Below, piece after piece: positions 28,972 to 55,462 of a DNA stretch of 64,000 nucleotides. The DNA comes from a virus, in IMG/VR virus record IMGVR_UViG_3300045141_000181, positions 1 to 64,000 of that record; one strand, given 5' to 3'. Position numbers and translations under genes: made by a program. The notes under the pieces were generated by a model. The model made no database searches, was not told the DNA's origin, and was given only the letters and a program-made list of their open reading frames with translations. Position 1 is the first letter of the stretch. Each line of letters opens with the position of its first letter.

Positions 28972-29037
28972 GTCAGGGCTTTGTAAGGGCTTATAAGGTT
29001 TATGTAAGGTTTATGTAAGGTTTGGGGTTGAATAAGG
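28971..29037 (+). repeat. Phased TGTAAGG-type repeats at the terS start
   Basis: Copies or variants at 28971, 28982, 28992, 29003, 29014 (10-11 bp period); more at 28456, 28468, 28478, 28717. Confidence 0.7.
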
Positions 29038-36290: not shown

Positions 36291-36514
36291 CACGAGACGA
36301 GAACTTTAGAAGAGTGCTCAGGGCGAGCAGATTAGCCAGCGAGGGTGTAACGATGGAATCACTTATCGAAGAAAACGACCGGCTGCGGTCTGCGTTGAAA
36401 TTAATTCAGTTTACGGCTGAGCCTCTAGATTCATTAGGCGCTGATTTGATCGCTCATACAGCCAAGCAAGCGCTCGCCGGGGAGAAGGTTCAGGAAGCAA
36501 CGCCCACCGCATAG
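36287..36514 (+). CDS. Small coiled-coil protein (paralogue of the previous ORF)
   Basis: Shared motifs; converges on the relaxase gene. Confidence 0.45.
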   Translation: MTRDENFRRVLRASRLASEGVTMESLIEENDRLRSALKLIQFTAEPLDSLGADLIAHTAKQALAGEKVQEATPTA

Positions 36515-39405
36515 CCGCGAATCTCTTCCTCGGCCAGCGCCTTTGGTTTTAATTGCTGTCTGAGTGCTGGCGAGTTCTCTCCAAGCAACGTCGCCCTATC
36601 GTCGGTGAAAACATGCAATGTCTGCGCCGCCCGCGAACCACCTACATACACAAGCGACTTGTCCATCAGTGAACGTATGCGCGAATCCCCGGTATCAAGA
36701 TGCAACAGAACATTCTCGGCGGTCGCATACTGCAAGCTGTAGCTCGTCATGGCATAGGAGTAGTCGACATGCGGCATGGCGCGCGCATCCCAGCGCACCT
36801 TGCGCCCATCCTCAAACTCCAAGACTCCTCGCCCTTTAGCATCTAGCGCCTTAATTGTGGTCATCGCGCGGTTGGGTATCCGTTCGTTCTTATTGAGTCG
36901 CCACGGTCGCGTAATCTGGACCCGCTCGCCCACTGCTAGTTTGCGGCGCTCCGCATTGTAGATCTCGACGCCATAAGCCAGCCTGGGGTTGTATGTCTTC
37001 TCGACGCCGTAGACGTCGATCGTGACCAGATTCTTTGCCGTATCCGTGCGGACCACGGGCGTATAGTCGCCGCTCTTTACCCCCAGCATGGCCACGCCTT
37101 TCCCCCACCGGATCACGTTACCCGCTTCGTACATCACGGCTAACTTGCGGTCTGCCTCGCGTACATCGCGCGTGCCGACAAGGATTGTGGCCTCGTACCG
37201 ATCCGCTCCCAACTTCTCGACCTTGCGCATCTCAACGCGCGCCGCGGCGTTCAACTCTGCGATCGATCGGTTATCCGGCGCAACCATGAGCGTGTCGTCA
37301 TGGGCCGCATACCACTGCGCCATTGCCTGAAACCGTTTCTTGCGGTCAGGCACTTGCCACACATGGGCCTGCTCATCCAGTTTCTTCAGCCCTTCTGTGA
37401 TTCGGCCTTCCTTCCAGTCGTTCACCACTTCGAGCAAAGCCGGATTATTCCGCTGGCGTACGATCTTTTCCACCTGAAACATGGGCACCCCGGCCATCTT
37501 CATTTCTTCGATGATTCGGCCCGCCTCTACAGATTGGTGTTGTCTCAGGTCGCCCGCCACTACATAGCGATCCTCGGGCCTAATGCTGCGCAGGAAAGTG
37601 TAGAACTGCCGTGTGCCGATCAATGAGCCCTCATCCAGGATGTAGAGGCGCTTATTCTCCGATGGATCAACCGACGCATGATTATGCGCCTGAATTGTCA
37701 TGGGCTCGATTCCCAGTGTGCGCAAGTTCTCTGCTGCCTTGGATGCGCTGGCCATTCCGATGACCGTATAGCCCTGCTCTCTGGCTACCTCCGCAATCGG
37801 CTCCAAGGATGTGGTCTTGCCGGTGCCCGCCGCGCCGAATACCAGCATGCCTTGATGCGGAGAGGTTAAGACATTGAACCCTATGCGCATCTGGCCACCA
37901 TTCGGAATGATGACCTTGTCGCCCTTTTTGCGCTCCTGGTAGCGCTCCCTGAATTCATCGGCGGTCAGATCAGGCGCAATCGGGGTTACAGTTCCCTTTC
38001 CGGCCAGCATTACCTCAATGCTCTGCCGCTCCATCTGCTGCATGGCTTTTGTCGTATAGCGCGCGCCAGGAGCGTTTTCCCGGTAATGCCCTACCCTAAC
38101 GAACTCCTGCCGCCCCGCAAACGCTTCCTCAACGTCCTGGAGTCGCAAATGCCCCAATCCGGCTCTTAGGGCATCGCGCATTAGCTCGTAATGGTCATTT
38201 ACCGCTTGGTGCTCGAAAAGCCGGTCGCGAGCGTGGTCTATCGAACGGTGCGCCCGTTTGCCCAGCTCGGCGGGGGAAAGTATGTGAACCTGACGCGCCT
38301 TCGATTCTGCCACGATGCGCTCCGGATGCTGGCCGAACTCTTCCGCCTGCCGTCGGTGTTCGGCTTTTAACGCCCCCGGATCCCATTCCTGTTTTGGCTG
38401 GCGCAGCGCTTTGTTGATAATCTCGTCGGCGGCGGCACCGGTTACGCCGCGGCGCTCTTTCTCGGCTTCAATCTCATTCGTGCGGGCCGAGATGCTTTCC
38501 AGGTACTCATCCGAATAGCCCTTGATGCGTGTGCTGAAGTTTTTCCCGTGCTCCAGTTCGAATCCGCCCGCCCATGCTTGTCGAGCAAGTGACGCCTCGT
38601 ATACGGCATTCATGTAGCTTTGAATGGCGAAGATTTCCCACGTCAGGAGCGCCCTCACCTTCCCATCCGCGTCCGTCATGTTCATAATCACGCAATGTGT
38701 GTGTAATTGCGGATCCGGCGCACGATTCTCAACGGGGCGAGATGTGTCATGTACGAACCTAGCAACCGCCCAATTGCCGGTAGTGTACGGCAACCGCGCC
38801 TTGCCCATTCGGGTTTGCGCGTAGAGTTCTCCAGCGTCGAGCATTTCCGTCACCGCGCGATTGTGCCAATCCACAATGCGCTTGTCCCCACCGACCAACG
38901 CGGACGCACTGTAGCTTTTGTGGGGCGAAACGACTACATCCCAGGATGCTACATGTAGAGACGGTGCCTTAGCTTCCTTCTCCGGCTTACCAGGCGGCAC
39001 AACACGGAACTCGACGGGGTCCAATTCGAGCGGGTCGACTTCGTCCATGAATTCGCGCACGCCTTCCGGCAACTGCGCACGCTCGCCAAGTGCCCATAGA
39101 TTCCTTACGTGTTCCTCCCACGCTACATGGTCAGTGAGCCATTTCGGTTCCCATAGTTTTGGATCGGGCGCCGGCAATCGGTGCTTGATTAATTGCTCCT
39201 CGGTATGGGGATGTTTCCCGGCAGCCAGCAGATCATAGTGCGCCATGTCGATCGGCCCGACCAGTCCCCACTTTTCCGCAAGTTTGCCGTGCCAAGTTCC
39301 GGGAGCGTGCGCGCCTTCCGTGTAATAGTAGGCGTTCTGTTGTTCGCGCGGATAGTCTTTTGTGTGCGCTTCCCCGAGCGGCTTCGATACCTTGGCTACA
39401 CCCAT
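36490..39405 (-). CDS. trwC: Conjugative relaxase-helicase, MOBF (TrwC/TraI)
   Basis: Y18 and Y26-28, HDTSRP...DPQLHTH HUH triad, Walker A GAAGTGKT, LDEGS, GDLRQHQSV, YAMTSYSLQ; 971 aa. Confidence 0.95.
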   Translation of the reverse strand: MGVAKVSKPLGEAHTKDYPREQQNAYYYTEGAHAPGTWHGKLAEKWGLVGPIDMAHYDLLAAGKHPHTEEQLIKHRLPAPDPKLWEPKWLTDHVAWEEHVRNLWALGERAQLPEGVREFMDEVDPLELDPVEFRVVPPGKPEKEAKAPSLHVASWDVVVSPHKSYSASALVGGDKRIVDWHNRAVTEMLDAGELYAQTRMGKARLPYTTGNWAVARFVHDTSRPVENRAPDPQLHTHCVIMNMTDADGKVRALLTWEIFAIQSYMNAVYEASLARQAWAGGFELEHGKNFSTRIKGYSDEYLESISARTNEIEAEKERRGVTGAAADEIINKALRQPKQEWDPGALKAEHRRQAEEFGQHPERIVAESKARQVHILSPAELGKRAHRSIDHARDRLFEHQAVNDHYELMRDALRAGLGHLRLQDVEEAFAGRQEFVRVGHYRENAPGARYTTKAMQQMERQSIEVMLAGKGTVTPIAPDLTADEFRERYQERKKGDKVIIPNGGQMRIGFNVLTSPHQGMLVFGAAGTGKTTSLEPIAEVAREQGYTVIGMASASKAAENLRTLGIEPMTIQAHNHASVDPSENKRLYILDEGSLIGTRQFYTFLRSIRPEDRYVVAGDLRQHQSVEAGRIIEEMKMAGVPMFQVEKIVRQRNNPALLEVVNDWKEGRITEGLKKLDEQAHVWQVPDRKKRFQAMAQWYAAHDDTLMVAPDNRSIAELNAAARVEMRKVEKLGADRYEATILVGTRDVREADRKLAVMYEAGNVIRWGKGVAMLGVKSGDYTPVVRTDTAKNLVTIDVYGVEKTYNPRLAYGVEIYNAERRKLAVGERVQITRPWRLNKNERIPNRAMTTIKALDAKGRGVLEFEDGRKVRWDARAMPHVDYSYAMTSYSLQYATAENVLLHLDTGDSRIRSLMDKSLVYVGGSRAAQTLHVFTDDRATLLGENSPALRQQLKPKALAEEEIRGYAVGVAS

Positions 39406-39408
39406 CCC

Positions 39409-39795
39409 TTATCCGTTCAGCCAGCGCATGAATTTACTCTTTTTGCTAGGCGCTTGCTTGACGGGTTTTGGCGTTCGTTTTACGGCGCGCTTTTTCCTGC
39501 GAAGTTCTTCGATTTCCGCTAAAGCGCGTTGAAGTTCTCGCGTTTGAGCCATGTGCGCATCGGACAGCCCATCTAGCGACGCGTCTGCCTCTTCCCAGAG
39601 ACATATGGCGCATTTGTCCATTCCATCTACACCAACCCAGCACTGCAACGAATGTCCACATGGTCCGATCGCTTTTGCTTCAGCTAGTTCGCTACGCAGC
39701 AACGCGACCGTCTTATCGTAAAGCTCGATCTGGGCACGCTTTGTGGCAACTTCAAATTCTAATTCCGCGAGGGTTGGTTTCCCTGTATCGCTCAT
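39409..39795 (-). CDS. Phage-like coiled-coil/zinc hypothetical protein inside the tra operon
   Basis: Start MSDTGK, ATGA-coupled to the T4CP gene; CGH...C..C. Confidence 0.45.
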   Translation of the reverse strand: MSDTGKPTLAELEFEVATKRAQIELYDKTVALLRSELAEAKAIGPCGHSLQCWVGVDGMDKCAICLWEEADASLDGLSDAHMAQTRELQRALAEIEELRRKKRAVKRTPKPVKQAPSKKSKFMRWLNG

Positions 39796-41720
39796 ATCCC
39801 CTCCGTAAGCGGATTCGGATTCGGCGCTTGCTTTGCGGTTTTCTTCGGCAACCGCAACGGTTCCGGCTCCTCGTCGCGCGTCGGGATAGTGATAGGCATT
39901 TTGCGCGGGATTGGCGCAGGCGTGACATCCTCCGCAGCGGGAGTTTGTTCCGGTTCCTCCAGACGAGGAATCAATCTTTCCATGCGGCAAGTTCTCGTCT
40001 TGCGCGGTAACGGTTGTATGTTGATCTTCACTGTTTTTCCTTGCTGCTTTAGCCAGCCCTCGAACAGCGGCACGCCTTGCACTTCGGACCCCATGACCGG
40101 GTCAATCGTTGGAGTCTGATTAGACCAAGAACGCGATCGGTTATGTTTCGCCATCATGTGAGCTGGTCGGCTTTCTGTCATGCGCTCGATTTCTTCTTTA
40201 CCAATCAGTCCAGCCATTTCCGCTGCTGCCTTGTCGCTTTCGGTTTGCAGAATGATATTCGTTGCGGCCTGCGATGTGACAGTGACCGCGCCGTTGTCGC
40301 CGTAGCGATCCTTAAGTTGCGCCATGTCGTGAATTCCCAGGATCAGCACGTTACCAGACGCGCGTTGTTTCGTCATGCCGGATTGCAACTGCGGTAGCCG
40401 TTGCATACTGGCTAGTTCGTCCAGAACAAACCACACCTTGGGAAGCTTTACACCGGGAGCGGGCGGCGCTTGTGTACTGAGAATCAGCAGATCGATCACG
40501 GCAGATTGCAAAGGCAATAGCGCCTCTGCGGTGAGTGGATCGCTGGTCATAAAAATCCACCCTGTACGCTTCGCTGCAAATTCCCTGACAGAGAACTGCC
40601 TACGACCTTCCGGAGTTGCTGGCATCATGCGGAGCGCTTTGGATACTTCGCCAAGCGTGGCCCATATTCCGGCTCCCTGTTGCGGCGCTTTCGGATCTGT
40701 CGCAACCGCAAATTCCGTACCCTTTAGCTTTGGTGCCACTTCTTTTTCTGGATGTGCCAGCCAATAACCAAGAGTGGACATCGGAGCGGGATAGCGAGAC
40801 ATCAGAAACGAAAAGATTCCTTTGGCGTAATTCCGAAAGAATGGCTGCGAACGCGGCAGTTCTGGCCAAAAGGCAGAACCCCAAGGCGTGGCCTGCGCTT
40901 CATCTTTTGCCTCTGACTCAAACGCATGATATACGCCTCTGGAATCCGTTGGATCATAGATCGAGTCCCCGCGCGACTCGTCGTAAAACTCATCCCTGAA
41001 TTCGCCCTTTGGATCGTAGATGACCGCCGTCTCGCCTCGGGCCTGCACTTGGTGCAAGATCTCCCTAATGAGCGTAGACTTGCCACGACCCGTCGCGCCG
41101 AATATTCCGAAGTGGTACGCAAGAAACTGCTCAGCGATGTGGATCTTTTGCCACGACCGTTTGCCAACTCGCAGTGTCAACCCGACCGGCTTAGGCGACT
41201 CCGAATTGAACCGGCTCCGGCTCACCATGCGCGTGCCGCGCACATGTACGCCCCACTGTCCCATGCGCTGGCGGCGACGGTCATACTCCACGCCCACCGC
41301 CACGCACAGAACGAACCAACCGCAGAACAACAACCCGAACACTCGGAATGTGCTTAGGATGTCGCCCGCGTACACGTCCTTTTCGAGCCACGTGCGCAAC
41401 TTGGACGGAACGGCTTGCACCATTTGCACGCGCTCCTCTGCAACCGGCTGCGTCACCAGGTGCGGCGCGTTTGCCGGACCCGTAACCACCATCGGGTACC
41501 ACTTCCATCGCTCCGTCTTGTGCAATCCAGACAGCGCACTTTGCGCAACCGTGCGCACGTACGTTGACAAGTAGTATTGCTGCAAGATTGGTCGATAGTG
41601 TACGCCGACTTTCCACCAGACCGGTACCAACACTAGCGCAAGCAGAATGCCGCACAGTTTGCCGATCGGTGCGCGTATCGGGAACGGTCCCCAGCGGCCA
41701 GGCGTTGCGCGCTCAGACAT
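39792..41720 (-). CDS. trwB: Type IV coupling protein (TrwB/TraD-like)
   Basis: Two N-terminal TM segments, Walker A GATGRGKS, IYDPKGEF, Walker B LDELASM, QL..RYG. Confidence 0.92.
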   Translation of the reverse strand: MSERATPGRWGPFPIRAPIGKLCGILLALVLVPVWWKVGVHYRPILQQYYLSTYVRTVAQSALSGLHKTERWKWYPMVVTGPANAPHLVTQPVAEERVQMVQAVPSKLRTWLEKDVYAGDILSTFRVFGLLFCGWFVLCVAVGVEYDRRRQRMGQWGVHVRGTRMVSRSRFNSESPKPVGLTLRVGKRSWQKIHIAEQFLAYHFGIFGATGRGKSTLIREILHQVQARGETAVIYDPKGEFRDEFYDESRGDSIYDPTDSRGVYHAFESEAKDEAQATPWGSAFWPELPRSQPFFRNYAKGIFSFLMSRYPAPMSTLGYWLAHPEKEVAPKLKGTEFAVATDPKAPQQGAGIWATLGEVSKALRMMPATPEGRRQFSVREFAAKRTGWIFMTSDPLTAEALLPLQSAVIDLLILSTQAPPAPGVKLPKVWFVLDELASMQRLPQLQSGMTKQRASGNVLILGIHDMAQLKDRYGDNGAVTVTSQAATNIILQTESDKAAAEMAGLIGKEEIERMTESRPAHMMAKHNRSRSWSNQTPTIDPVMGSEVQGVPLFEGWLKQQGKTVKINIQPLPRKTRTCRMERLIPRLEEPEQTPAAEDVTPAPIPRKMPITIPTRDEEPEPLRLPKKTAKQAPNPNPLTEGI

Positions 41721-42015
41721 GCTTTTCCTTGTGCCACTCTTGTATGGAATCGGCATCGGCCAGTTCCTGCAACAAAGCACTAGCGCGATATCCAGCGGCA
41801 CCAAGTAGCGTTGCTAATTCTTCTACATAGCTGAAGTATGTCTCCAATTCATCTGGATCAAGTGGAGGCTTTCCAGCAATCGCCCTTTGAATTACACTGT
41901 GAGCTTTCGCCAGCGCACAGCACGCCATGATTAACGCAGTGTCTAGCGTCTCCATGTCCAGCGGTTCTTCAGTCACGTTTGCACGCCTCCGTACAGATCT
42001 CCCGGTACTCTTCAT
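41713..42015 (-). CDS. Hypothetical protein
   Basis: Coupled ORF between the RHH and T4CP genes. Confidence 0.4.
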   Translation of the reverse strand: MKSTGRSVRRRANVTEEPLDMETLDTALIMACCALAKAHSVIQRAIAGKPPLDPDELETYFSYVEELATLLGAAGYRASALLQELADADSIQEWHKEKHV

Positions 42016-42292
42016 GCGTCATTGGTACGTGTCCGTTATCAATTTCCCATTCCTTGATGAATCTCGTGACACGCAAAAGATCGCCCAACTTTTTACGGAT
42101 GATGCGAATGCTTTCCGAATCTTCTGCGCTACCACTGCTTGCTTCACCGTTGCCGACAATCTCGCGCAATATCAGATGCCGAATATACGAACTTTCGTCC
42201 ATGCCCCGACCGCTCGCCAAACCACGAAACAAAGCGGCCTGTTCCTCGCTCAGCTTCGTCCCAACCGACACCGTTTTTGATCCGTTTTTCAT
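41969..42292 (-). CDS. Ribbon-helix-helix relaxosome accessory protein (TrwA/MobC-like)
   Basis: SVGTKLSEEQ..F..LA...GMDESSYIRHLI; upstream of T4CP and relaxase as in trwABC. Confidence 0.6.
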   Translation of the reverse strand: MKNGSKTVSVGTKLSEEQAALFRGLASGRGMDESSYIRHLILREIVGNGEASSGSAEDSESIRIIRKKLGDLLRVTRFIKEWEIDNGHVPMTHEEYREICTEACKRD

Positions 42293-42400
42293 GTGTATTC
42301 TACTTAACCCCAGTAACCCCAGTAACCGATCTGAATTCCAGAGACGTCATCTCAGGGGGGAGTAAACCCGTGTCGCCTTTTTGGTTTACCGTTGGCTCTA
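42293..42400. other. Candidate oriT
   Basis: Intergenic, upstream of the trwA-like gene; AACCCCAGT direct repeats, GTAAACC/GGTTTAC inverted repeat. Confidence 0.4.
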
Positions 42401-43131
42401 TCACGTTATGGGTTGCTTGGCTAGTTCTTCTTGGCATTCACACCAATAGGCTGCAAGGCATACCGCCATTTCCACTTCAGACAGAAGTTCGCCACCATCC
42501 CTAGCCATCATCTGCGCAGCCATCCGTCTAGCAACACGCTCTTGCACTGGGTTGGTTAGGCTTAGCTCTCGCAACGCCCTTTCGCACCTAGCCTGTATGT
42601 TTGGGCGCATGGCAAGCCTTATTTTTGCCGCCATGCCAATGACCCACCTCATAGCCGATATCCCTCCGAAACCGCCATAACCTCGCGCCCAACACTCATG
42701 GAACTATCTCTCCGTCTATCCAGTGACCCAGCCATTTGCCTAAGCTACCGTCAGGATTTTGTTCAAAGACAATGGGTGCCGACGGCAGCATTTCCGCCAA
42801 GTCGTACCACGCCAGAAGGCACTCAAGAAGCGATTGCCCGATATAACTTTCAGTATTCGATAACCCACAAACGAAGTACATCCACCGAAAGAGCATCTGG
42901 CGCAGATTCATATCCCATATCCCTCAGAAATCTCCTTCACTTCTCTCTGCGCTGCGACTTCTCTATCGATTGCTGCATTCCTAATCGGAGTAGCGCCAAT
43001 GCGTAATTTATCCAGGAATGATAGGTAATCCTTGCGTCCGTATTCATCACCCATCCACGGCGGGCCGCCGTCATATTTGTCAAGATACGCCCTCCTGACA
43101 ATCCGCACCTCGTCTTCAATCTGATCACTTT

Positions 43132-44124
43132 TCATAGCCGATACCCTTCTGATTGAACAAACTTTTCTTCGTTTTTTATGCCCTCCTTTTTCATATGGGT
43201 AACGTATTTGTCAAGCATTTCTACGGCGGTAATGCCCGGCTGCTCGCGTCCCATTTCGTTCATTCGTCTACTTACCTCTTCCGGCGTATGCCGCTCTCTC
43301 ATTAGCCAGTACAGATTATCTTGTGCTGACTCTTCCAGAATTTGTTTTTCTACTTGCATATAGCCCCCACTTCCAGAAACCGCCATAACCTCGCGCTCTT
43401 GCTGCGCGTACACATGCGCCTGCCCCGTGTTTACCGTGTAGCCCTTTTCGCGCGCTTCGACGATCATTTCGGCGAGCTTTCCGAGCGCTTTGTTGTGCGC
43501 TTCCTGCGCCTTCTCCGGGCTGTCCGTAATGTACGTTTGGCTGAGATCTATGGTCCGATTCCCAACTGACAATTGATTCGAGAAGTCGCGCGCCATGGCC
43601 GATACAGGTAGCTCGATGCGCATGTGCTCAACGTCAACGAGTTGGATCTTTCCGTTGACTTCTTTCTCCATCTTGCCGTCGGCATAATTGAGCAGAATCT
43701 CTGCCATCTTTAGGCGCGATTCATGCTCTGGCACCCAGTTCGAAATGGCTTGCTGCGCACCTTGGTGGTAGCGATATTCGACGAAGTTTATCGCACCCTT
43801 TTCTGTCGTATCGAACTGCAATGCAGCCGCTGTCGCGAATGGCATAATGCGGCGTTGGTGGTCATTCAATAGCTCGTCCAACTGCTGCATATTGCGCGGG
43901 AACGGTTCAGCCTGGAGGCGCTTCATTTCGGCCTCGTAGCCAAGCTTTTCCGGGTCAGCCTTAATCAACTGATGCTCTATTTCCTTGATTCGTCCGTACC
44001 CTTTGTCGAGATTCAGCATGCGCTCGTTGGGTGCCAAATCGTTCACATGGCTGAGCTGATCGATGATTAAGGCCCGCTCAGCGGCGAGCCTTTCGCGAAC
44101 GCTTTCCTGCGCCTGAGCTTCCAT
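43132..44124 (-). CDS. Hypothetical helical protein in the tra region
   Basis: 330 aa, charged; no family recognised. Confidence 0.6.
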   Translation of the reverse strand: MEAQAQESVRERLAAERALIIDQLSHVNDLAPNERMLNLDKGYGRIKEIEHQLIKADPEKLGYEAEMKRLQAEPFPRNMQQLDELLNDHQRRIMPFATAAALQFDTTEKGAINFVEYRYHQGAQQAISNWVPEHESRLKMAEILLNYADGKMEKEVNGKIQLVDVEHMRIELPVSAMARDFSNQLSVGNRTIDLSQTYITDSPEKAQEAHNKALGKLAEMIVEAREKGYTVNTGQAHVYAQQEREVMAVSGSGGYMQVEKQILEESAQDNLYWLMRERHTPEEVSRRMNEMGREQPGITAVEMLDKYVTHMKKEGIKNEEKFVQSEGYRL

Positions 44125-44346
44125 CTACGCCACCTTTCGGATAGCTTCTTTAGCGGCCTTTGTGCGCCGCTGTTTGGCCGGTTTGTCGCTCGGCAGAACC
44201 TGATCAAGGATCTGGCCGACGACGTAGTCCACGCTGCTGTCGAGCGATTCGGCGTACCCGATTAGCCGAGTTATCAACTCCGGATGCACCTTAATCGTGA
44301 GCGCTTCCGGTATTGCTTTGTCTTCTGGTTTAATGTCAATCTTCAT
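44125..44346 (-). CDS. DUF2274-like small protein
   Basis: LTIKVHPELITRLIGYAESL resembles DUF2274 proteins found after trbI; AAGGAGG SD. Confidence 0.45.
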   Translation of the reverse strand: MKIDIKPEDKAIPEALTIKVHPELITRLIGYAESLDSSVDYVVGQILDQVLPSDKPAKQRRTKAAKEAIRKVA

Positions 44347-47620: not shown

Positions 47621-47631
47621 GTTTCCTTCCC

Positions 47632-48345
47632 TTACTGAACCGGCTCGGCTTGCAACTCGGTAATGAGAATGCCTAGCGGGTTTTCTTCGCGGGCCTTCTC
47701 GGCCGTGGGGATGCGAATCGAGTAGACGATACGCGCTCGCCATGACTTCTGAGCCGTCACTTCGCCGCTGGTAGATGTTGTCGTCTCGGTCCACCAGATC
47801 CCATACGTGTGTTGGCCTTCGACATCGTAGGTCTTGTACTGCACCGTTACGAGGTGCCCGTCGTCGGCAGCCTTGATTGGATCGTGCTCTTGATACCACG
47901 TCGCCACAACCCGCTTGGCTTGGCTGGCATCGCCGAGATAAGAGAAGCTCCTATCCCATGCGGTTGCTTGCGCGGTGCGGTCGCTCGTTACCGTGCGCCA
48001 TGACTCAATGAACCGCTTGAGAGATTGGACCTTAACCGCGTCCCATGTTGCAGCATCCATATCCGCAGGCTTGGTCGGCCCGGAATAGGAGACTTGATTA
48101 GCCGCATCTCGCTGTAGCACATATACGTCGGTCTTTGACAGCGTAGCCACATGCCAGAGGGCGGCGACCAGTGCGGCAACGATCCCTATCAGCCCGAAAG
48201 CCGCCAGCATCCAGTTGCGCCTACCGGCCGCAAGGTTGCTCCATGACTCTTCCCATGCGCGTGCGGCGAGCTTTGACCGAATCGCCGGGTCCTTATCGGC
48301 AGACTCTGCCTTGGTTCTTTGAAGTGTTTCTAGAGTGTGTGCCAT
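47632..48345 (-). CDS. trbF: T4SS TrbF/VirB8
   Basis: AWEE...RNWML TM; RFIESWRTV..D; NPLGILI. Confidence 0.9.
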   Translation of the reverse strand: MAHTLETLQRTKAESADKDPAIRSKLAARAWEESWSNLAAGRRNWMLAAFGLIGIVAALVAALWHVATLSKTDVYVLQRDAANQVSYSGPTKPADMDAATWDAVKVQSLKRFIESWRTVTSDRTAQATAWDRSFSYLGDASQAKRVVATWYQEHDPIKAADDGHLVTVQYKTYDVEGQHTYGIWWTETTTSTSGEVTAQKSWRARIVYSIRIPTAEKAREENPLGILITELQAEPVQ

Positions 48346-48353
48346 ATTTTTCC

Positions 48354-49583
48354 CTAATGATTGAATCCGTTGAATCTTGGCGTGCTACCGCCCGCGCCGG
48401 AATGCGGCATGCGGGCCGCTGAATTGACCGCAACCTGCGCCATGCTGACAGCGCCGCGCGCCATAGCTCCTGATGCTGCCGAGCGACCGCCACCAGGGGA
48501 CACTTGCGGTGTTTCATTACCGCCCGATGGTGAGCCACCCGGCGCTACTCCATTAACAGAGTTCGCTGCACTGGCAGCACCAGAGACCGCACCACCTACC
48601 GCTGCCGTAGCGCCGCCGCTGGCGAACCCTGCCGCCACCATTGCCCCGGACACTGCGGCGCCTATTGCTGGCGCGACAAAGCTCAACATGTCGCTATGGC
48701 TAAGGTTTGGAGAGCCACCCAGTAGACCGGCAATGTGCGACGGCAGAAACCAGCAGACCGATGCGTACAGAACTGCACCGGCCGCGATCAGATAGGAAGC
48801 CTGCACACCGGCCTGAGTGAATGGGATGGCTTGCGCTGCCGCTATCCAGGAATTCGTCATCATCCAGCCCGCACCGATGAGCAAATACATCATCATCAGG
48901 CGGATTCCTGCCCCGAACGAATACGCGAAGTATCGCTCAACATACGAACTGGTATAGCCAGATCCGCCGAACCCCAGGAACAAGACACCCGCACCAAGCG
49001 CGACGAACGTTTGTACTTTGGCGATTATGAATTGTATGGTGATGACCAAAAAGCACGCGATGATCACCGTCCCGGCAAACACAAGCGCATGCGCTGTGGC
49101 GATATCGGCCATCAAGCCGTGCTTGAATGCTTCCCATAGCAGCTTGCCGAATATCTTGAAGCCCTGGAGAAGCACTACTGACGGAGCTATAGAGGGCACC
49201 CCGCTTGCAGCTTTGCCGATCTGCACAAAGCTGTTGATAATCGCGCCCATCCATGTGCCAGCATTCATCAGTAGGGCCAAAAACATTCCAATCATCAGAA
49301 TTTTGTTGGTAGCAGTGAAGATTACGCTTCGGATATCCTGCCCATTCCATGTACGCCACAGCGTCCAACCCAGAAAGGCCATTTCCAGGCCTGCCAACGC
49401 CCAAAAAATCTCAAATGCGAATGGAGAGATGGACGTGAACCATACAGTGGATACTTGCTCAATTGCCTGAGTAAGCGAGGACGGATCAGAGATGACCGGC
49501 GCGGACGGAGGGCCGAATTGCCCAAACAATACTGGCGCTAATAACAGGCCGAGCAAAAGGCGTTTATTCATTGGAGTTACCAC
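48354..49583 (-). CDS. trbL: T4SS TrbL/VirB6
   Basis: Polytopic membrane protein with a Gly/Ala/Ser-rich tail; gene order. Confidence 0.9.
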   Translation of the reverse strand: MVTPMNKRLLLGLLLAPVLFGQFGPPSAPVISDPSSLTQAIEQVSTVWFTSISPFAFEIFWALAGLEMAFLGWTLWRTWNGQDIRSVIFTATNKILMIGMFLALLMNAGTWMGAIINSFVQIGKAASGVPSIAPSVVLLQGFKIFGKLLWEAFKHGLMADIATAHALVFAGTVIIACFLVITIQFIIAKVQTFVALGAGVLFLGFGGSGYTSSYVERYFAYSFGAGIRLMMMYLLIGAGWMMTNSWIAAAQAIPFTQAGVQASYLIAAGAVLYASVCWFLPSHIAGLLGGSPNLSHSDMLSFVAPAIGAAVSGAMVAAGFASGGATAAVGGAVSGAASAANSVNGVAPGGSPSGGNETPQVSPGGGRSAASGAMARGAVSMAQVAVNSAARMPHSGAGGSTPRFNGFNH

Positions 49584-49897
49584 GCCCGCGATCTGTCGGC
49601 GAGCGGTTCAGGTGCCGGGGTAGCCATCATTGCGGCGCGGCAGACGGTGCCTTCAGAACTGCGCCCCCAACTTGCTGTAGCGTTCAATTGCCGCTGCTGG
49701 CATGCCGTAGAAATCTCCGTTGCCAGCGTGGGACGATTGGCGAACCACGTTCCCAGACTCAAGGCGTCAAAGGTGGACAGATCCCCAGCACCCGCCGCCT
49801 CAACCCGGCGCACGATTGCCGATTGCTGAGCGTTCGGGTCATAGCAACCGATCAAGGAAATTATTCCCAGCATGGCTACACCTAGCCGACTAAACAT
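49577..49897 (-). CDS. Lipoprotein, putative entry exclusion (TrbK position)
   Basis: Lipobox SLIG-C; between trbJ and trbL. Confidence 0.55.
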   Translation of the reverse strand: MFSRLGVAMLGIISLIGCYDPNAQQSAIVRRVEAAGAGDLSTFDALSLGTWFANRPTLATEISTACQQRQLNATASWGRSSEGTVCRAAMMATPAPEPLADRSRAW

Positions 49898-50165
49898 GCG
49901 TGGCCTCCGTATCAGTGCAGGCGAGTTTGGTCTCCGATATGACCGGTGGTGCTCCGCAAAACATGTATACTAAGCTCACCACCACGACCTGCATAACGGC
50001 AAACGCATTGCCGAATAGACGCACATCGGCTTCATAAGCGGCGGGCAAATCCCCAAACTTCAGAACCGCCCAGCACACACATAATGGCCATATTGCTACA
50101 ACCAGAAGCCCTATCACGTGCCTATATCTAGAGACAAATGATGCCGCTATCTTTATAGTTTTCAT
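49890..50165 (-). CDS. Small membrane protein
   Basis: Two hydrophobic segments; inserted after trbJ. Confidence 0.45.
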   Translation of the reverse strand: MKTIKIAASFVSRYRHVIGLLVVAIWPLCVCWAVLKFGDLPAAYEADVRLFGNAFAVMQVVVVSLVYMFCGAPPVISETKLACTDTEATHV

Positions 50166-50171
50166 ATTGCC

Positions 50172-50897
50172 TTACCATGCCCTCGTATCTGCTGAAATGC
50201 TGCTCGGGTCGCCAAACCCAGAAGTGGCCGCCTGAATCTGTGCCTGCTGGGTATTAATCTGCTGTGCCGAAATAGCGGCCTTGGCTGCCATGTCAGCAGC
50301 AAAGAGTGCGCGCAGCTTCATGAGTTGAGCGACCGTTTCTGTGCCTACCGAAACGCCGAGCTGCAGACTTTGATTGCGTCCCTGCGGAGTAACCATTAGC
50401 GCTTGAATCCGCGCCATGAATTGCTGATCGTTGGCTAAGCTGTTACCCTGCATTCCGGCCGTATTGGCCACGCCCTGAATGGTCTTTAGTGCGGTATCTG
50501 ACCAAGTGTTGTATGCCGTAGCGTAAGTTTGCGTGCCTGTAGAAGCAAACGGTACGTAGACCGCGCGGAATTGATTGTCCATCTGCGCAAAGTCAAGCGC
50601 TAAGCCGCGCGACTGCTGCAAGATACTTCCAAAACTTGAAATATCCGCCAAGATGTTCGTGCTCGGATGTTGCGCCAGATCAACCCCTTCTCGCACCATG
50701 ATTTGAGCCATTTGCACGGCATTTAACGCGGTTTGGGCCTCCTTCACGTAATTTGATAGAAGCTGGGCGTGGTTGAGAAGCTGGGTAATTTCTGATGCTG
50801 CTAGTGGGTTCCAGAACTGCGCCCGCGCTTCCTCTGCCGGAACAAGCAAGAGCGCTGCCGGAAGAATCACAAGTGGGAAAGTGGATAGTTTACGCAT
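50172..50897 (-). CDS. trbJ: T4SS TrbJ/VirB5
   Basis: Signal peptide, ASEITQLLN, G.NQSLQ...QLMKLR motifs. Confidence 0.88.
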   Translation of the reverse strand: MRKLSTFPLVILPAALLLVPAEEARAQFWNPLAASEITQLLNHAQLLSNYVKEAQTALNAVQMAQIMVREGVDLAQHPSTNILADISSFGSILQQSRGLALDFAQMDNQFRAVYVPFASTGTQTYATAYNTWSDTALKTIQGVANTAGMQGNSLANDQQFMARIQALMVTPQGRNQSLQLGVSVGTETVAQLMKLRALFAADMAAKAAISAQQINTQQAQIQAATSGFGDPSSISADTRAW

Positions 50898-53382
50898 ACT
50901 GGGCCGTCTCCTTTTCGGCCAGATTAGAAATCTGCGAATAGTAGTCTGCCCATTCGTTGAGTCCTCGCGAGCGAAGCCAAGTGGCTACCCAGCCGTGCCC
51001 ATTGCGAGCGATCATATTGTCAACGCGAGCGCGATCCGCATCAGTGGATGCCGCCACAAACGACAATGTGAGCGCACCCAATTCCAGCGCGATAAGGCGC
51101 TTCCCGTCGGGCGACATCACGTAGTAGTCGGACTTCAGCTCTGCATGTGCGATCTTTTCACGGTCCAGCGAATTGCAGCCCATCGCCTCGTACGCCGCCG
51201 CGCCCTCCAGAATTGCTTGCGGATTAGGCAGGCACACTTTCGTTAAGCATTGATCCAGAACCGCCGATTTCAGCGGAGAAGCGAAGACCTTGGACAATTC
51301 CTGAAGAACCAGCCAAACCGACATGTTGAGCTTTCGCCCCTCAAGCAGGAATTCCTCGAAGCATTTAGCGGCCATCGGATGCGATAGCGCCTCTCGGAAT
51401 TCATCAACCGTAACGAGAGTCGGAACGTCCGAGCGAAGGCGCTTGCGGATCTTGTGGAAGATATAAAACAGGGCTCCATTCATGGTCTTTTTGTCGAGAC
51501 GATACAGTTCATCCATCTCGAACACGACCATGCGGCTTAGCTCTAAATTATCCTTTTCCCCGTCAAGGATGCCACCGCAGTAGAACTTCAGCGCTTCCTT
51601 TACCTCAATCGAAGCCACGGCCATCCTAAAATCCGTAAGGGAGCGCCCGCCCTTGCTGCCCGCGAGCAATTGCAGCGCTTCCGCTACATCATTGCGGATA
51701 TCTGGAGTTACCGTTAAGCCGTTCTGATCCAGAAGAAGCTCGATCCACTGAGATGCCCAATCTAGATCCCGCTTTGTCTCTAATTGCGCCAGCGGACAAA
51801 GCAGCGTCTCGCCTGAATCGGGGCTGATATCTATGAAGTCGCCACCCATCGCCTTCGTGAGCGTATAAAGGGCGCGCTTCTTATCGAATGCATATACCTG
51901 CGCGCCTGGGTAGCGGAACCACTGCGCGATAGAGAGCCCCAGCCATGTGGTCTTACCGCTGCCGGTCGGGCCGGTTATCAATTGATGGCCTACGTCTTTA
52001 ACTAATGGATGGAAGCGATACGCGCTGCCACCACTCGTAACCGCATGAAAGAGTGGTGGAGACTTATATGGAAAGTATGGCGACGGGCAAAACTCCAAGC
52101 CACGGAATGGTGCCGACAATGGCATCATATGCACTAAGTTTTCCGTAGTCACGATAAACGTGCGCGGGTCCTTGTACTGCTGTCCTGGAAATGTAGCCAG
52201 CCATGCCGCTACCGCGTTGGTGGTCTCGACCCGACAAGAAAATCCGCAATTCTGGCGAATAACCCTTGTGATGGCCTGGGCCGCTTCGCGCAAACGCTCC
52301 ACGCTTGACTCCATAACTATGACCTTGCCCGAATACCGCACCGAGACCTCGCGTCCATGCTCTGCGAGATTCATGGCGCGCAACGCATCGCCCTCCAACT
52401 CAGCGGCTACCGTATCCGCAAGCTCCGGGGATGCATTCTGCATCAATTTGCTCTTGATGGAGGTCTTTTTGCTTTTCCACTTTCCCTTGTTCGCCTCATG
52501 CGCTTTCGTGGCTTCCTGCGCGTCCATGAGAGCACCCTGCTGGCAGAAGCGGAAATCATAAGGGATGGAGTCCAGTTCGCGCATAATACCGGCAAAGCTT
52601 AACTGTGGGAATCCATCTATCGCGATGACACAGATGCGCTTTCCGGGGACCAGTTCATTCATTGGATCGCCCAGCTCCGGCTCCCCGCCACCCGTGAAAT
52701 CATCCGCGGCCAAATATTGATTCAGGTGCGCCGGAACGTCTGGGATAGCGAATGGGAATTCTTCTCCACAGATACACCAGCGCACGTATTCCAGAAGCTC
52801 ATCGCAGACCATAGTGGCCTCGCCTACGCGCTTCTCATAACTCTTGAGACGGCGCACGCCGGGAAGATTCGCCCGCAGAAGTGAATCGATCTCGGATACC
52901 TTCTTTCCAAATACTGCGAGGTCTTTTTCATCAGATCCGCCGCCCTGCGTTGCGTCGAATAGAAACCGGGCGGCTTTCGCTGATCCTCCCGCGCCAGCCT
53001 CATACGAGACAGCCATAAAATAGCGGCTGAGTCTCGTTCCGCTTTCGTCGGCCAGCATATAGCGATTGCGGCGCTCATGGTCGATCATGTGCGAGACCGC
53101 ATCGGGCCAGTCGGCACTTGGTGAATACTCCGACTTCTGGGAACGGATTAAATCGCAATGAATCGTCCAGCCCTTCCCCATGCGCAACTTACTAGACATG
53201 CGCTTGGCGATCTGCCAGCACTCCTCAATGGGCAGTGCGTCCATATCCGGACCCCAGAATTCCCATGCGGCCACAAGCACATTCGTAGATAGAAGCAGCA
53301 CGCCATCGTCCGCAAGCGCGAAGTAGTCAATCAGGTCTGACAGACCATTAGCGTTTTTTCTGGCTTCAGCCTGAATAAACAT
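50890..53382 (-). CDS. trbE: T4SS ATPase TrbE/VirB4
   Basis: 830 aa; DVGHQLITGPTGSGKT, FDK, VDEF, RKLN, LPNP motifs. Confidence 0.95.
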   Translation of the reverse strand: MFIQAEARKNANGLSDLIDYFALADDGVLLLSTNVLVAAWEFWGPDMDALPIEECWQIAKRMSSKLRMGKGWTIHCDLIRSQKSEYSPSADWPDAVSHMIDHERRNRYMLADESGTRLSRYFMAVSYEAGAGGSAKAARFLFDATQGGGSDEKDLAVFGKKVSEIDSLLRANLPGVRRLKSYEKRVGEATMVCDELLEYVRWCICGEEFPFAIPDVPAHLNQYLAADDFTGGGEPELGDPMNELVPGKRICVIAIDGFPQLSFAGIMRELDSIPYDFRFCQQGALMDAQEATKAHEANKGKWKSKKTSIKSKLMQNASPELADTVAAELEGDALRAMNLAEHGREVSVRYSGKVIVMESSVERLREAAQAITRVIRQNCGFSCRVETTNAVAAWLATFPGQQYKDPRTFIVTTENLVHMMPLSAPFRGLEFCPSPYFPYKSPPLFHAVTSGGSAYRFHPLVKDVGHQLITGPTGSGKTTWLGLSIAQWFRYPGAQVYAFDKKRALYTLTKAMGGDFIDISPDSGETLLCPLAQLETKRDLDWASQWIELLLDQNGLTVTPDIRNDVAEALQLLAGSKGGRSLTDFRMAVASIEVKEALKFYCGGILDGEKDNLELSRMVVFEMDELYRLDKKTMNGALFYIFHKIRKRLRSDVPTLVTVDEFREALSHPMAAKCFEEFLLEGRKLNMSVWLVLQELSKVFASPLKSAVLDQCLTKVCLPNPQAILEGAAAYEAMGCNSLDREKIAHAELKSDYYVMSPDGKRLIALELGALTLSFVAASTDADRARVDNMIARNGHGWVATWLRSRGLNEWADYYSQISNLAEKETAQYA

Positions 53383-53384
53383 TC

Positions 53385-53687
53385 TTAAGTTCTCCAGCGC
53401 TTCGCCCGGATCGGCTTAGCCGTCCAGAATCCTCGGTTGTAGCGTTGCGAATTGTGGTGGACCTCGATGAGGCGTGGGTCATCCTTAGCCATTTCTTGGA
53501 GCATTTTGCGGAGAAAAAAGAAAAGGCCAATCGACAGCCCAATCCCGTAACGATTGGGCACCGACAGCACCACCACCACGCACAATACCCCTACAAGCAC
53601 TATCGCGGCCGGTTCGCACCCAACAAGTAAGTGTGTCCGATTAGACGACTCGTGGAACTTTGCGCAAAAGCTAGGGTGAATATCCAT
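53385..53687 (-). CDS. trbD: T4SS TrbD/VirB3
   Basis: H.S.NR.HLL.G.E, two TM segments, MAKDDP. Confidence 0.88.
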   Translation of the reverse strand: MDIHPSFCAKFHESSNRTHLLVGCEPAAIVLVGVLCVVVVLSVPNRYGIGLSIGLFFFLRKMLQEMAKDDPRLIEVHHNSQRYNRGFWTAKPIRAKRWRT

Positions 53688-53699
53688 TGGCCTTTTGAG

Positions 53700-54017
53700 T
53701 TAAATAATTGCGCCCTGGACGCCAGGGATAAAGCTGAGCAGTGAAGCGCTGCCCAAGGCGATTCCAGCAACCGCCAGAGTTCCCATTGCTCCGTTACCTA
53801 CCGCGCCCATATCGTGGTGGTGCCGATACCATGAGATCGCGCCAACCACCACCATGATTAGCGAGAGCCCATAAGCCAGAGGGCCAGCCACTTCGTTTGA
53901 TAGCCCGAAAATCGCTTCAGTGGCTACTAGCCTTCCACCACCGACAGCAAGCATGTGCGGGGCCGTTAGCAGGCTCGACAATATAAATCCAGAAGCACGT
54001 AATGCAAACTTTTTCAT
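53700..54017 (-). CDS. trbC: Pilin TrbC/VirB2
   Basis: Start MKKFALR (54017); signal peptide, VAGPLAY, two hydrophobic helices; between trbB and trbD. Confidence 0.8.
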   Translation of the reverse strand: MKKFALRASGFILSSLLTAPHMLAVGGGRLVATEAIFGLSNEVAGPLAYGLSLIMVVVGAISWYRHHHDMGAVGNGAMGTLAVAGIALGSASLLSFIPGVQGAII

Positions 54018-54030
54018 CTCTAATTTCCTT

Positions 54031-55113
54031 TCAGACAAATCGATATGCGTAATCCTGTTTTTCTCGGTCGAATCCATCGATGAGCAGGATTTCGCGAACC
54101 TTTCGACCAGCGGAGACTCGGTCTTCGCCATCAATGAAAATCACCATGTTGATCGCTGACGCGATTCTTTCTCTGGTGGATGCCTCATGGCCACCCACCA
54201 AAGTCTCTAGCTTTCTAAGACCCTGTACGGCATCGTCAGCGTGGAGTGTAGCCAATCCACCCGAATGTCCCGTATTCCAAGCGCTTAATAGCGTGCGCGC
54301 TGGATGCTCCTCTCGCACTTCTCCAACCACGATGCGTTTCGGTATCAGGCGCAACGTCGTAGTTAGCAGTTCCGCTTGCGATATGTGCGCGGTTGACAAT
54401 AACTGCACATGATTAGGCAAACTGCATTGCAACTCGGGCGTGTCCTCGATTATTACGACCCGATCTCCCGGCGTGGATTCTAGCCAATCGTGAATCACGC
54501 TGTTCGCTGCGGTGGTTTTGCCGCTGCCTGTAGGCCCAACCATCAAAATATTCCTGCGATGACGATTGGCGGCTCGAATTACGTCAACGTGGTCAAGCGA
54601 CGACGACTCCATTTCTCGGCTGAACTCGTCGCGATTGCGTTTACTGTTGAGTGGATCGTCCTTTCGGGTTGTTATTCCGCCATCGTGCATATCCTGCAAA
54701 GAGAAGATTTTCTTCTGTCTGGTGCGGATGGCGAACACTGGAGATGTAACCACCGGGCTACATACCCCCTCTATTCGGTCCCCTGTCAACGGGAAGATTG
54801 TTTCCAGGATTGGGTGGTCATGATCAAATTGAATGCCGCGAACTGTTGCGATTCCAGAAAGCAGCAACGCGCTTGAGTTTGGCGGAAAATGATCCACACA
54901 CATAAACCCATAACCCAATCGATTTACCCACAGCCTAGAGTCTGCGTTCACCACCACATCAAGCGTTAACGGATCCTGAAGGAGTTCGACGATCGGACCA
55001 GCATGGCAAGCCAGATTGTGTAATTGCCGCCTCTCCTGGTCCGATGTCGTCTTCATAGATACTTTCGCTCCAATCGCAGATGTAACCGGTGTAGCCATCG
55101 CCTCATGATTCAT
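54031..55113 (-). CDS. trbB: T4SS ATPase TrbB/VirB11
   Basis: GPTGSGKT, IEDTPEL, LRL.P.RI.VGEVR, WNTGH.GG..TLHA. Confidence 0.95.
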   Translation of the reverse strand: MNHEAMATPVTSAIGAKVSMKTTSDQERRQLHNLACHAGPIVELLQDPLTLDVVVNADSRLWVNRLGYGFMCVDHFPPNSSALLLSGIATVRGIQFDHDHPILETIFPLTGDRIEGVCSPVVTSPVFAIRTRQKKIFSLQDMHDGGITTRKDDPLNSKRNRDEFSREMESSSLDHVDVIRAANRHRRNILMVGPTGSGKTTAANSVIHDWLESTPGDRVVIIEDTPELQCSLPNHVQLLSTAHISQAELLTTTLRLIPKRIVVGEVREEHPARTLLSAWNTGHSGGLATLHADDAVQGLRKLETLVGGHEASTRERIASAINMVIFIDGEDRVSAGRKVREILLIDGFDREKQDYAYRFV

Positions 55114-55198
55114 TCCTTTTTGTTTTGCGCGGCGAGTGGTTGCCCGCCGCGCTATGTCGTCACCCTTTGGTTTTAAGTACTATCTCCTCCTAGTTCAT

Positions 55199-55227
55199 AC
55201 TGTACACATTTTTGTTTACACTGTCAA
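55199..55227 (-). promoter_or_regulatory. sigma70 promoter of the trb operon
   Basis: TTGACA(55227-55222)-17-TACAGT; overlapping TGTACAC/GTTTACA imperfect inverted repeat; adjacent CCATTATCT/AGATAATGG inverted repeat. Confidence 0.7.
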
Positions 55228-55279
55228 CCATTATCTTGTATAATTCTTTGTAGATAATGGATTACACTTATGCCAAGGG

Positions 55280-55462
55280 ATGAAAACTAAACAGCCCGTG
55301 AAGAAGCGTAGAGACGACGTTGAGCGAGCCCCAGTCAATATACGAAATGTTGCAAAACGAGACTGGGAGAACATAAAAGACATCGCCAAACAGGAAGGCT
55401 TGAGCCTCTGGATGGTACTCGATGAGATGTTTCATGATTGGCTTAAGAAGCACCGCCATTAG
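55280..55462 (+). CDS. Small RHH-like regulator divergent from the trb operon
   Basis: VNIRNV...W..IK..A...GLSL..VL..M...W. Confidence 0.55.
   Translation: MKTKQPVKKRRDDVERAPVNIRNVAKRDWENIKDIAKQEGLSLWMVLDEMFHDWLKKHRH

Follow-up and report, generated by a model that had tools for sequence, protein, structure and literature searches.

A Circular Metagenomic Element That Probably Combines a Tailed Phage with a Conjugation System

Gene Content and Layout of the Element

The stretch of DNA analyzed here (the window) comprises bases 1–64000 of IMG/VR virus record IMGVR_UViG_3300045141_000181, which is 72,812 bp long, and carries a conjugation block (36,490–55,113, minus strand) that sits between phage replication and packaging genes and is co-oriented with both. 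The record ends are identical over 127 bp, which gives a circle of ~72,685 bp; IMG/VR classes the record as DTR (direct terminal repeat), with a CheckV completeness of 100%. One flank of the block encodes the large terminase subunit (TerL), a tailspike, a probable portal, and a capsid protein with the HK97 fold; the other encodes DnaB, an initiator, a methylase, an integrase, and Erf. The recognizable genes of both modules are all full length and without stops. We interpret the element as probably a genuine phage–conjugative hybrid, and its host is probably a member of Bryobacteraceae; the evidence tilts slightly toward a circular ~72.7-kb replicon from soil that is a temperate tailed phage of Acidobacteriota.

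The minus strand holds nearly all long open reading frames (ORFs) of the window. Genes follow one another on one strand as erf, int, methylase, initiator, dnaB, the trb operon, traF, a candidate origin of transfer (oriT), coupling protein, relaxase, a 7.5-kb accessory region, packaging genes, and virion genes. The virion module runs from ~67.5 kb through the origin of the record to 29 kb; an ORF of ~725 codons crosses the ends of the contig, and a 1334-aa ORF comes after it. GC content is 0.51–0.61 across the window with no step at the conjugation block, and no tRNA genes were found in the 64-kb window.

Conjugation Genes

Families were called with Pfam and NCBIfam scans of ORFs, and phage genes with PHROG and Pfam. 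The block and its immediate upstream region contain the following features.

36490..39405, minus strand: MOB-F TrwC-type relaxase with a C-terminal superfamily 1 (SF1) helicase, 971 aa (Pfam TrwC 1.8e-63, AAA_30 5.9e-38)
39792..41804, minus strand: type IV coupling protein (T4CP), TrwB/TraD type (Pfam TrwB_AAD_bind 5.6e-67, TraG-D_C 2.6e-17; Walker A)
41969..42292, minus strand: 107-aa ORF at the TrwA position, a candidate accessory DNA-binding protein by position only
42293..42420, no strand assigned: candidate oriT, with two direct repeats of TAACCCCAG and then the inverted repeat GTAAACC-N14-GGTTTAC
43132..44124, minus strand: 330-aa ORF inside the block (32% match over 117 aa in metagenome contig L047)
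44125..44412, minus strand: 95-aa ORF adjoining traF (47–49% identity over 78 aa in chromosomal relatives G207 and G278)
44794..45336, minus strand: TraF, signal peptidase that processes conjugative pilin (NCBIfam TIGR02771 8e-24, below the equivalog cut-off)
45333..46625, minus strand: TrbI/VirB10 (Pfam TrbI 1.9e-52)
46625..47899, minus strand: TrbG/VirB9 (Pfam CagX 4.5e-32)
47632..48345, minus strand: TrbF/VirB8 (Pfam VirB8 2.6e-26)
48354..49583, minus strand: TrbL/VirB6 (Pfam TrbL 1.2e-21)
49577..50165, minus strand: trbJ–trbL interval with two small ORFs (106 and 91 aa), at the lipoprotein/entry-exclusion gene position
50172..50897, minus strand: TrbJ/VirB5 (NCBIfam TIGR02780 1.3e-23, below cut-off)
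50890..53382, minus strand: TrbE/VirB4 ATPase (NCBIfam NF010404 1.1e-161; Pfam CagE_TrbE_VirB above cut-off; Walker A)
53385..53687, minus strand: TrbD/VirB3 (NCBIfam 9.6e-10, Pfam VirB3 5.7e-4; both below cut-offs)
53700..54134, minus strand: TrbC/VirB2 pilin (Pfam TrbC 6.4e-06, 26.7 bits vs. a cut-off of 27.9)
54031..55113, minus strand: TrbB/VirB11 ATPase (Pfam T2SSE 5.6e-29; Walker A)
55199..55227, minus strand: best sigma-70-like promoter match of a 20-kb scan, just upstream of trbB (TTGACA-17-TACAGT, 10/12)

The sequence-only reading had described co-oriented trb and traF genes, a coupling protein, and a 971-aa TrwC relaxase-helicase, with key catalytic motifs and no frameshifts. Pfam and NCBIfam confirm these families, and the conjugation genes are full length and contain no stops. 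TrbL, TrbF, TrbG, TrbI, and TrbB score above the Pfam cut-offs, and TrbJ, TrbD, TrbC, and TraF below the curated cut-offs; TrbE covers positions 7–812 of the 818 of NF010404, with 539 bits vs. a subfamily cut-off of 810. The helicase part of the relaxase (GAAGTGKT), the coupling protein, TrbE, and TrbB each contain a Walker A motif. In the relaxase there are also Y18, Y26–28, and HDTSRPV...LHTH, which we take to correspond to the catalytic residues of TrwC.

In the CONJscan definition, a self-transmissible element has a relaxase, a T4CP, a VirB4, and type-specific mating-pair formation (MPF) genes. A relaxase, a T4CP, a VirB4-family ATPase, and most MPF-T genes (VirB2, 3, 5, 6, 8, 9, 10, and 11) were all found here by Pfam and NCBIfam. 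Judged by its genes, the conjugation set is complete, comprising a P-type (Trb, MPF-T-like) type IV secretion system (T4SS), a coupling protein, and a MOB-F relaxase. With an integrase (60418–61491) on the same circle, the element has, from genes alone, the make-up of an ICE (integrative and conjugative element).

Several smaller ORFs of the block have no assigned family. The 107-aa ORF has no Pfam or NCBIfam match, including none to a ribbon-helix-helix family, and neither do the small ORFs in 49577–50165, the first of which has 43–53% identity to ORFs of G207 and G278. The 95-aa ORF is kept beside traF in those chromosomal relatives. For ORF 43132–44124 no Pfam or NCBIfam family was found, and its Atlas scores are all <0.9 and uninformative.

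Our guess, from the arrangement of repeats, is that an oriT may lie near 42.3–42.4 kb; the candidate has no nucleotide match in 117 loci beyond chance 12–13-mers. The two best sigma-70-like matches in the 20 kb scanned both lie in the gap upstream of trbB (consensus matches only). No second recombinase was found among the block ORFs scanned with Pfam and NCBIfam, the sole large ORF without a family being 43132–44124. Of the direct repeats that bracket the block, the longest has 13 bp (CCTTTGGTTTTAA, at 36540–36552 and 55164–55176). Its P value from 1000 shuffles is ~0.035, and it ranks top against 47 control pairs of real sequence; as a block border, it is borderline. The earlier view that the block has no recombinase or att repeats of its own thus holds for the ORFs scanned, and no flanking repeat is convincing.

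Virion and Packaging Genes

The phage half is genuine, yet very divergent. Its recognizable genes are as follows.

22963..24951, minus strand: TerL, large terminase subunit (phrog_2 1.1e-24)
19900..22272, minus strand: probable portal, 790 aa, between the TerL and capsid genes (phrog_156 1.5e-4, weak)
16822..18093, minus strand: predicted major capsid protein, HK97 fold, 423 aa (AlphaFold pLDDT 91.6 and Foldseek)
12548..14938, minus strand: tailspike protein containing a pectate-lyase-like domain (Pfam Pect-lyase_RHGA_epim 1.8e-08; phrog_2234 tail spike 1.9e-07)
9479..10096, minus strand: capsid-associated protein, 205 aa (phmmer 5.7e-21 to chain 'orf16' of PDB 9EG4)

The terminase and capsid gene proposed from sequence alone both stand. 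A tblastn search with TerL matched 537 GenBank phage records, with 24–25% identity to annotated terminases among those listed. The product of 16822–18093 has no Pfam or PHROG match, and Pfam gave no match for 115 of its relatives either; these 115, from 408 obtained by profile search, were used for the model alignment. A model built from 10 close sequences reached a pLDDT (predicted local distance difference test) of only 38.8, and the 115-sequence alignment raised this to 91.6. The best Foldseek match of the model is the capsid protein of phage SU10 (7z45_C, 5.9e-11), and the capsids of Mic1 and A-1(L) are also matched; among 256 matches at E ≤ 0.001, those listed are, with one exception, capsids of phages, satellite phages, or gene transfer agents. 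The predicted structure identifies this protein as an HK97-fold capsid protein.

The locus comparison used here set the ORFs of the window record against 32 TerL-family and 85 relaxase loci, with flanks of only ~10 kb per side. The probable portal ORF 19900–22272 is kept in 20 of the 32 TerL-family loci, and both its length and its place suit a portal. When six window ORFs and one capsid profile were searched against PDB sequences, 9479–10096 gave the sole sequence-level match to a solved structure; there was none for the capsid protein, the portal, a 786-aa ORF, ORFs 10129–10635 and 26068–26466, or the capsid profile. According to its paper, 9EG4 belongs to the pair of models deposited for Legionella phage LME-1 (the capsid and the portal-tail complex). 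A fibre-like match was found besides the tailspike; no tube, sheath, tape-measure, or endolysin families were recognized in the scanned window ORFs.

Further observations concern this module and its relatives. ORF 28408–28971 is doubtful as a small terminase: its homologues in two circular phage relatives, G002 and G003, belong to the early region and are on the strand opposite to that of the virion genes. Four HNH endonuclease genes are present (16046–16747, 24869–25585, 29121–29696, and 59685–60185). Two of these sit between core virion and packaging genes, and each matches only 2 of the 32 TerL-family loci, which suggests that they are mobile homing-type insertions. In the virion modules of G002 (47642–60775) and G003 (52542–65300) there is a single giant ORF, of 4377 and 4252 aa, respectively; in the window, only the 207-aa ORF 2034–2657 matches part of it. 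Some TerL homologues bear inteins (P0022, P0072, P0080, P0085, P0091, P0095, and P0109); these are ~930–1050 aa long, with Hint or LAGLIDADG domains (PF13403, PF14528, and PF14890).

Assembly Support for the Linkage of the Two Modules

The record is a short-read metagenome assembly, and could be a chimera, a false circle made by the assembler from a phage and from a conjugative plasmid or ICE present in one host strain. Logan contigs of the probable source run (X1) and of runs from other studies (X2 and X3) were compared with positions 22,001–42,000. In the independent assembly of X1, a contig of 22,841 bp (depth 10.4) spans 29,026 to ~51,866 with 0 differences, and so bridges the 36.5-kb junction, one of the places at which the sequence-only reading had called for a check. 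This contig links the genes for the relaxase, the coupling protein, and the greater part of the T4SS to an HNH gene (phrog_119, 5e-09) and to ORF 32194–32562, with 52% identity to a gene of G003. It also holds a 15-bp motif, TTTACCGCTTTACCG, which is found exactly at 33636–33650 and again at 66,034 of the record, with a variant at 27678–27691. This motif ties together the accessory, late, and early regions and has no occurrence in the conjugation block; TTACCG-N2-TTACCG has only two sites in the window and one at 66,034, and none in the block.

Word depth on the virion side of X1 is 12.0 and 12.4 (two contigs) vs. 10.4 on the conjugation side, and no X1 contig bridges 29,026–29,032. A repeat lies directly at this break.

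28985..29025, no strand assigned: 11-bp tandem array of ~40 bp, TTTATGTAAGG and variants, adjoining the Logan contig ends at 29026–29032

A break at 29,026–29,032 is expected, because a 31-mer graph cannot resolve a tandem array of ~40 bp. The array lies just upstream of the helix-turn-helix (HTH) gene 28408–28971, and could be an operator, iterons, or a pac-related site. For the depth step from 12.4 to 10.4, possible causes are GC bias, a block-free variant present as a minority, packaging that starts at a pac site nearby, and the existence of two replicons. In X2 and X3, short contigs (depth 2–4) match the genes for TerL, the relaxase, and the coupling protein, as well as the accessory region, with 0 differences; the stretches without cover are uninformative. 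Because contigs of TerL and of the relaxase and coupling protein occur in X1, X2, and X3, both modules travel together in three studies. A joint in X3 from 28000 to 38997 was set aside, since one side comprises only 20 letters. The tetranucleotide signature of the block correlates at 0.84–0.88 with the rest of the element vs. 0.79 with its closest conjugation relative, a comparison too weak to decide anything.

A chimera would be consistent with the lower depth on the conjugation side, with the position of the break close to the end of homology with phage relatives, and with the result that no fetched relative carries the two modules together. However, a false circle requires two wrong joins, and the tandem array explains the break at one place. 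The conjugation contig itself has the HNH gene, the homologue of a G003 gene, and the motif that recurs at 66,034; phage-type early genes (integrase, Erf, DnaB) are found beyond the block; the circle is as large as expected for the phage family; and a 33,231-bp contig from other data appears to carry TerL, relaxase, and coupling protein homologues together. We consider a chimera improbable, and physical linkage of both modules likely.

Relatives of the Conjugation Block and Possible Further Instances

The closest relaxase homologue (P0122; 75% identity) is from that 33,231-bp Logan contig. The closest coupling protein homologue (P0248; 65%) and a TerL homologue (P0106; 50%) have records that, like that of P0122, read 'Logan, 2 contigs, longest 33231', and no other length is common to the TerL and relaxase lists. 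One 33.2-kb contig type appears to carry homologues of all three genes. An IMG/VR fragment (L042; 14,992 bp, 1–14110) encodes a coupling protein (36% identity), a relaxase (37%), a homologue of the DUF1376 protein (59%), and a 313-aa ORF that matches phrog_2 terminase (3.8e-12), with all these genes in one orientation. Beyond its relaxase gene, L042 is unlike any other of 84 relaxase loci. L042 may be another phage with conjugation genes, or the edge of a tandem.

Relatives of the relaxase and coupling protein with a named source come from metagenome-assembled genomes (MAGs) of Bryobacteraceae and Silvibacterium, and one TerL relative is also from a Bryobacteraceae MAG. Among 401 genomes of the host family, TrbE occurs in 43 and the TerL family in 2; no integrated copy of the element was found in this search. 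The closest chromosomal TrbE proteins are in G207 (64%) and G278 (65%), where the blocks are split by stops and frame changes, and the coupling protein of G207 is absent within the 80 kb fetched. What G207 and G278 have in common with the window lies only in the 36.5–53.4 kb genes, and includes no flanks. On their sequences, these Trb blocks read as decaying ICE remnants in complete genomes of the Bryobacteraceae family.

Synteny with an intact block is closest in L047, a 17.7-kb metagenome contig, and a metagenome scan with the relaxase profile gave mostly relaxases of ~35% identity. The locus comparison yields a clean split, in which phage ORFs match only TerL-family loci and block ORFs only relaxase loci. 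As a separate observation, close relatives of the relaxase (P0122, P0125, P0126, P0129, and others) are mostly ~1300 aa long with a fused primase (Toprim, DnaG-type); the window relaxase (971 aa) is without the fused primase part.

Phage Relatives and Acquisition of the Block

TerL homologues numbered 251 at E ≤ 1e-20, of which 120 were listed; among those listed, twelve are on contigs of 64.5–73.8 kb. The IMG/VR profile scan with TerL gave 31 loci, and that of genome contigs gave one 10-kb MAG contig. ORF by ORF, 1.6–26.7 kb is syntenic with the circular relatives G002 and G003, with identities of 81 and 76%, respectively, for the capsid protein and 72 and 66% for TerL; at 29–72.7 kb there is almost nothing in common with either. 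In G002, early genes encode a helicase, methylases, a VapE primase-helicase, YqaJ, and a Gp3-like factor, and the same region has a weak match to an integrase. By gene content, these relatives are ordinary temperate-phage-like genomes with interchangeable early halves. At 72,685 bp, compared with 67,457 and 70,593 bp for circular relatives, the element is within the size range of the family.

A number of results weigh against a phage–conjugative hybrid, in addition to the depth step and the unbridged break described above. VirB4 was found in none of six larger IMG/VR relatives and a relaxase in none of the five tested; these relatives include the circular genomes of 67,457 and 70,593 bp as well as a genome of 76,503 bp, and the window's own gene served as the positive control. 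No TerL-family locus (0/32) matches any ORF of 36.5–55.1 kb, and no relaxase locus (0/85) any ORF of 1.6–29 kb, within the ~10-kb flanks. None of three IMG/VR relaxase records has this TerL family, and TrbE and the TerL family occur together in 0 of the 401 host-family genomes. The oriT candidate has no nucleotide conservation in the closest conjugation relative, L047; no lysis gene was recognized among the scanned ORFs, although the sequence-only reading had listed one; and co-linearity on the 33,231-bp contig rests on matching record statistics.

A search for relatives that combine the same TerL with trb synteny, proposed earlier as a check, gave none among the IMG/VR relatives fetched, and G002 and G003 share only the virion and packaging half. 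The suggestion that the block is an integral part of the phage holds in one respect, since it is embedded and co-oriented, with phage genes on both sides; it fails in another, since the block is not a family trait. Comparison with an 'empty site' is impossible because the whole early half differs between relatives. The absence of the block from relatives, together with this difference, points to a lineage-specific acquisition by modular exchange.

The linkage might be real but recent, and perhaps transient, with an integrase-stripped conjugation module residing in a phage and one transfer route working; the block would then be passenger DNA, or the phage half would be on its way to a defective prophage, in the manner of P1-derived plasmids that lose phage functions. 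The absence of the block from all six larger relatives checked is consistent with this, as are the complete difference of the early half between relatives (rapid modular turnover), the decay of the chromosomal homologues of the block, the borderline 13-bp repeat that brackets it at 36,540 and 55,164 (P ~0.035), and the lack of a recognized lysis gene. Against this, the recognizable genes of both modules are full length without stops, copies that are nearly identical come from three studies, the genome has remained within the size range of the family, and a second element, with a TerL only 50% identical, seems to pair the same modules, which speaks for persistence. We regard a transient linkage as unlikely, but as an alternative of some substance.

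Proposed Transfer Routes and Comparison with Known Systems

For a phage–conjugative hybrid, the following course of events is envisaged. The early half would have been rebuilt by modular exchange, gaining a Trb T4SS, a coupling protein, and a MOB-F relaxase. After integrase-mediated excision, or in a free-circle state, the relaxase would nick the putative oriT near 42.3–42.4 kb, and the coupling protein would pass the relaxase-bound single strand to the Trb channel, by which the whole phage genome would enter a recipient through mating. By the alternative route, the late genes would package the same DNA into capsids. The element would thereby act as phage and ICE at once. Full dual function, by particles and by mating, is predicted from genes, and we place it between a tentative prospect and roughly an even one.

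The case consists of one metagenomic circle, one inferred instance, and one possible further instance, and is a strong lead rather than a demonstration. A broader proposal, which we put forward tentatively, is that acidobacterial soils harbor a lineage of capsid-size-limited temperate 'conjugative phages' that retain a full Trb/MOB-F conjugation system in their genomes and send the same 70-kb DNA by virions and by mating. For such phages, the depth step at 29.03 kb could be a headful-packaging signature, with the block encapsidated.

According to a 2025 review, the combination of spread by particles and by mating has not yet been found. Phage–ICE tandems and nested ICE::Phage forms are described by Huang et al. 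(Sci Adv, October 2026; PMC13651849), in which the phage integrase makes a circle that the ICE machinery transfers. There, tandems are treated as two elements with their own integrases and att sites, 'rather than a hybrid element' (PMC13651849). The element resembles these tandems in that a prophage and a conjugation system are physically linked and, from genes alone, movable as one unit. It differs from them in that it has a single integrase, lacks clear inner borders, and is no larger than expected from relatives without the block, and in that its conjugation genes lie between phage replication and packaging genes.

The element could itself be such a tandem or nested ICE::Phage, that is, two autonomous elements accreted at an att site and caught as a joint circle. 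Composites of this kind, nested forms included, are reported from seven phyla (PMC13651849), and the element does have an integrase and a full conjugation set. However, the ORFs scanned include just one integrase, the borderline 13-mer is the only candidate for a second att-like repeat, and none of the flanks of the block recurs in its chromosomal relatives. Huang et al. (PMC13651849) give the published tandems as longer than single phages or ICEs, whereas the element is sized as its block-free relatives. We judge a tandem or nested origin very improbable. Composite phage-plus-ICE units are no longer unknown, and the compact single-integrase form is probably a variant beside the tandems of 2026.

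Phage-plasmids (P1, N15, and SSU5) have plasmid replication and partition, and are described as transferred only as particles (PMC7969092, PMC12282955). The element is similar in combining virion genes and plasmid-typical functions in one replicon, and different in having an integrase and, among the ORFs scanned, no partition gene. Six Escherichia coli phage-plasmids of ~175 kb with conjugation genes are described as suspected co-integrates or artefacts (PMC10123127), and 'conjugative phage-plasmids' in a 2026 preprint (10.64898/2025.12.20.690322) are viral clusters with plasmid hallmarks. In a limited literature search, no compact conjugative phage was found in print.

The conjugation module belongs to the same relaxase, coupling protein, and Trb families as those of IncW R388 and IncP-Ti (TrwABC plus Trb/VirB); as in R388-type modules, a putative accessory gene, the coupling protein, and the relaxase form one operon beside a repeat-bearing non-coding region. 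Identity to the R388 and IncP-Ti modules is low, and the hosts of the element are Acidobacteriota. SU10, the capsid of which was solved by cryo-EM, has the closest capsid fold (7z45_C, 5.9e-11), and Atlas neighbors of the capsid protein include clusters with 12% SU10_MCP carriers, but sequence identity between the two capsid proteins is ~10%.

Particle transfer and mating are commonly set against each other as strategies that differ in cost, in host range, and in the size of DNA they allow. If the hybrid is real, both can be fused in one compact, single-integrase evolutionary unit of the capsid size of its family. Mating would then let a phage reach hosts that do not have its receptor, and the element would be a concrete object for testing viral escape from a receptor-limited host range. 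Binary classifiers of virus or plasmid would mislabel such elements.

Early Genes and Accessory Region

Beyond the block, on the side away from the virion genes, lie the following early genes.

55459..55773, minus strand: protein with a DnaA C-terminal HTH domain (Pfam Bac_DnaA_C 4e-23)
56617..57942, minus strand: DnaB-type replicative helicase (Pfam DnaB_C 3.7e-49, DnaB 6.9e-21)
57939..58730, minus strand: DUF1376/primosomal-type replication protein (Pfam DUF1376 1.2e-07; phrog_9327 2.3e-17)
58727..59422, minus strand: N6/N4 DNA methyltransferase (Pfam 2.5e-12; phrog_67 8.7e-27)
60418..61491, minus strand: tyrosine integrase, the only recombinase found (phrog_1 1.8e-41; Pfam Phage_integrase 4.2e-11)
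63323..64000, continuing to 64606 in the record, minus strand: Erf single-strand annealing protein (Pfam ERF 5.7e-21; phrog_155 1.1e-41)

An HNH-AP2 gene is also among these early genes. The DnaB, initiator, and integrase genes noted from sequence alone are supported by the matches to DnaB_C, Bac_DnaA_C, and phrog_1. No ParA/ParB or plasmid Rep families were found among the ORFs scanned (small ORFs only in part), and the integrase is present. In the accessory region, between the relaxase and packaging genes, ORF 34736–35635 (299 aa) was considered as an integrase and rejected, since it has a C-terminal PEP-CTERM sorting motif instead, which scores slightly below the cut-off (E 0.001). Its product is possibly cargo for the host envelope.

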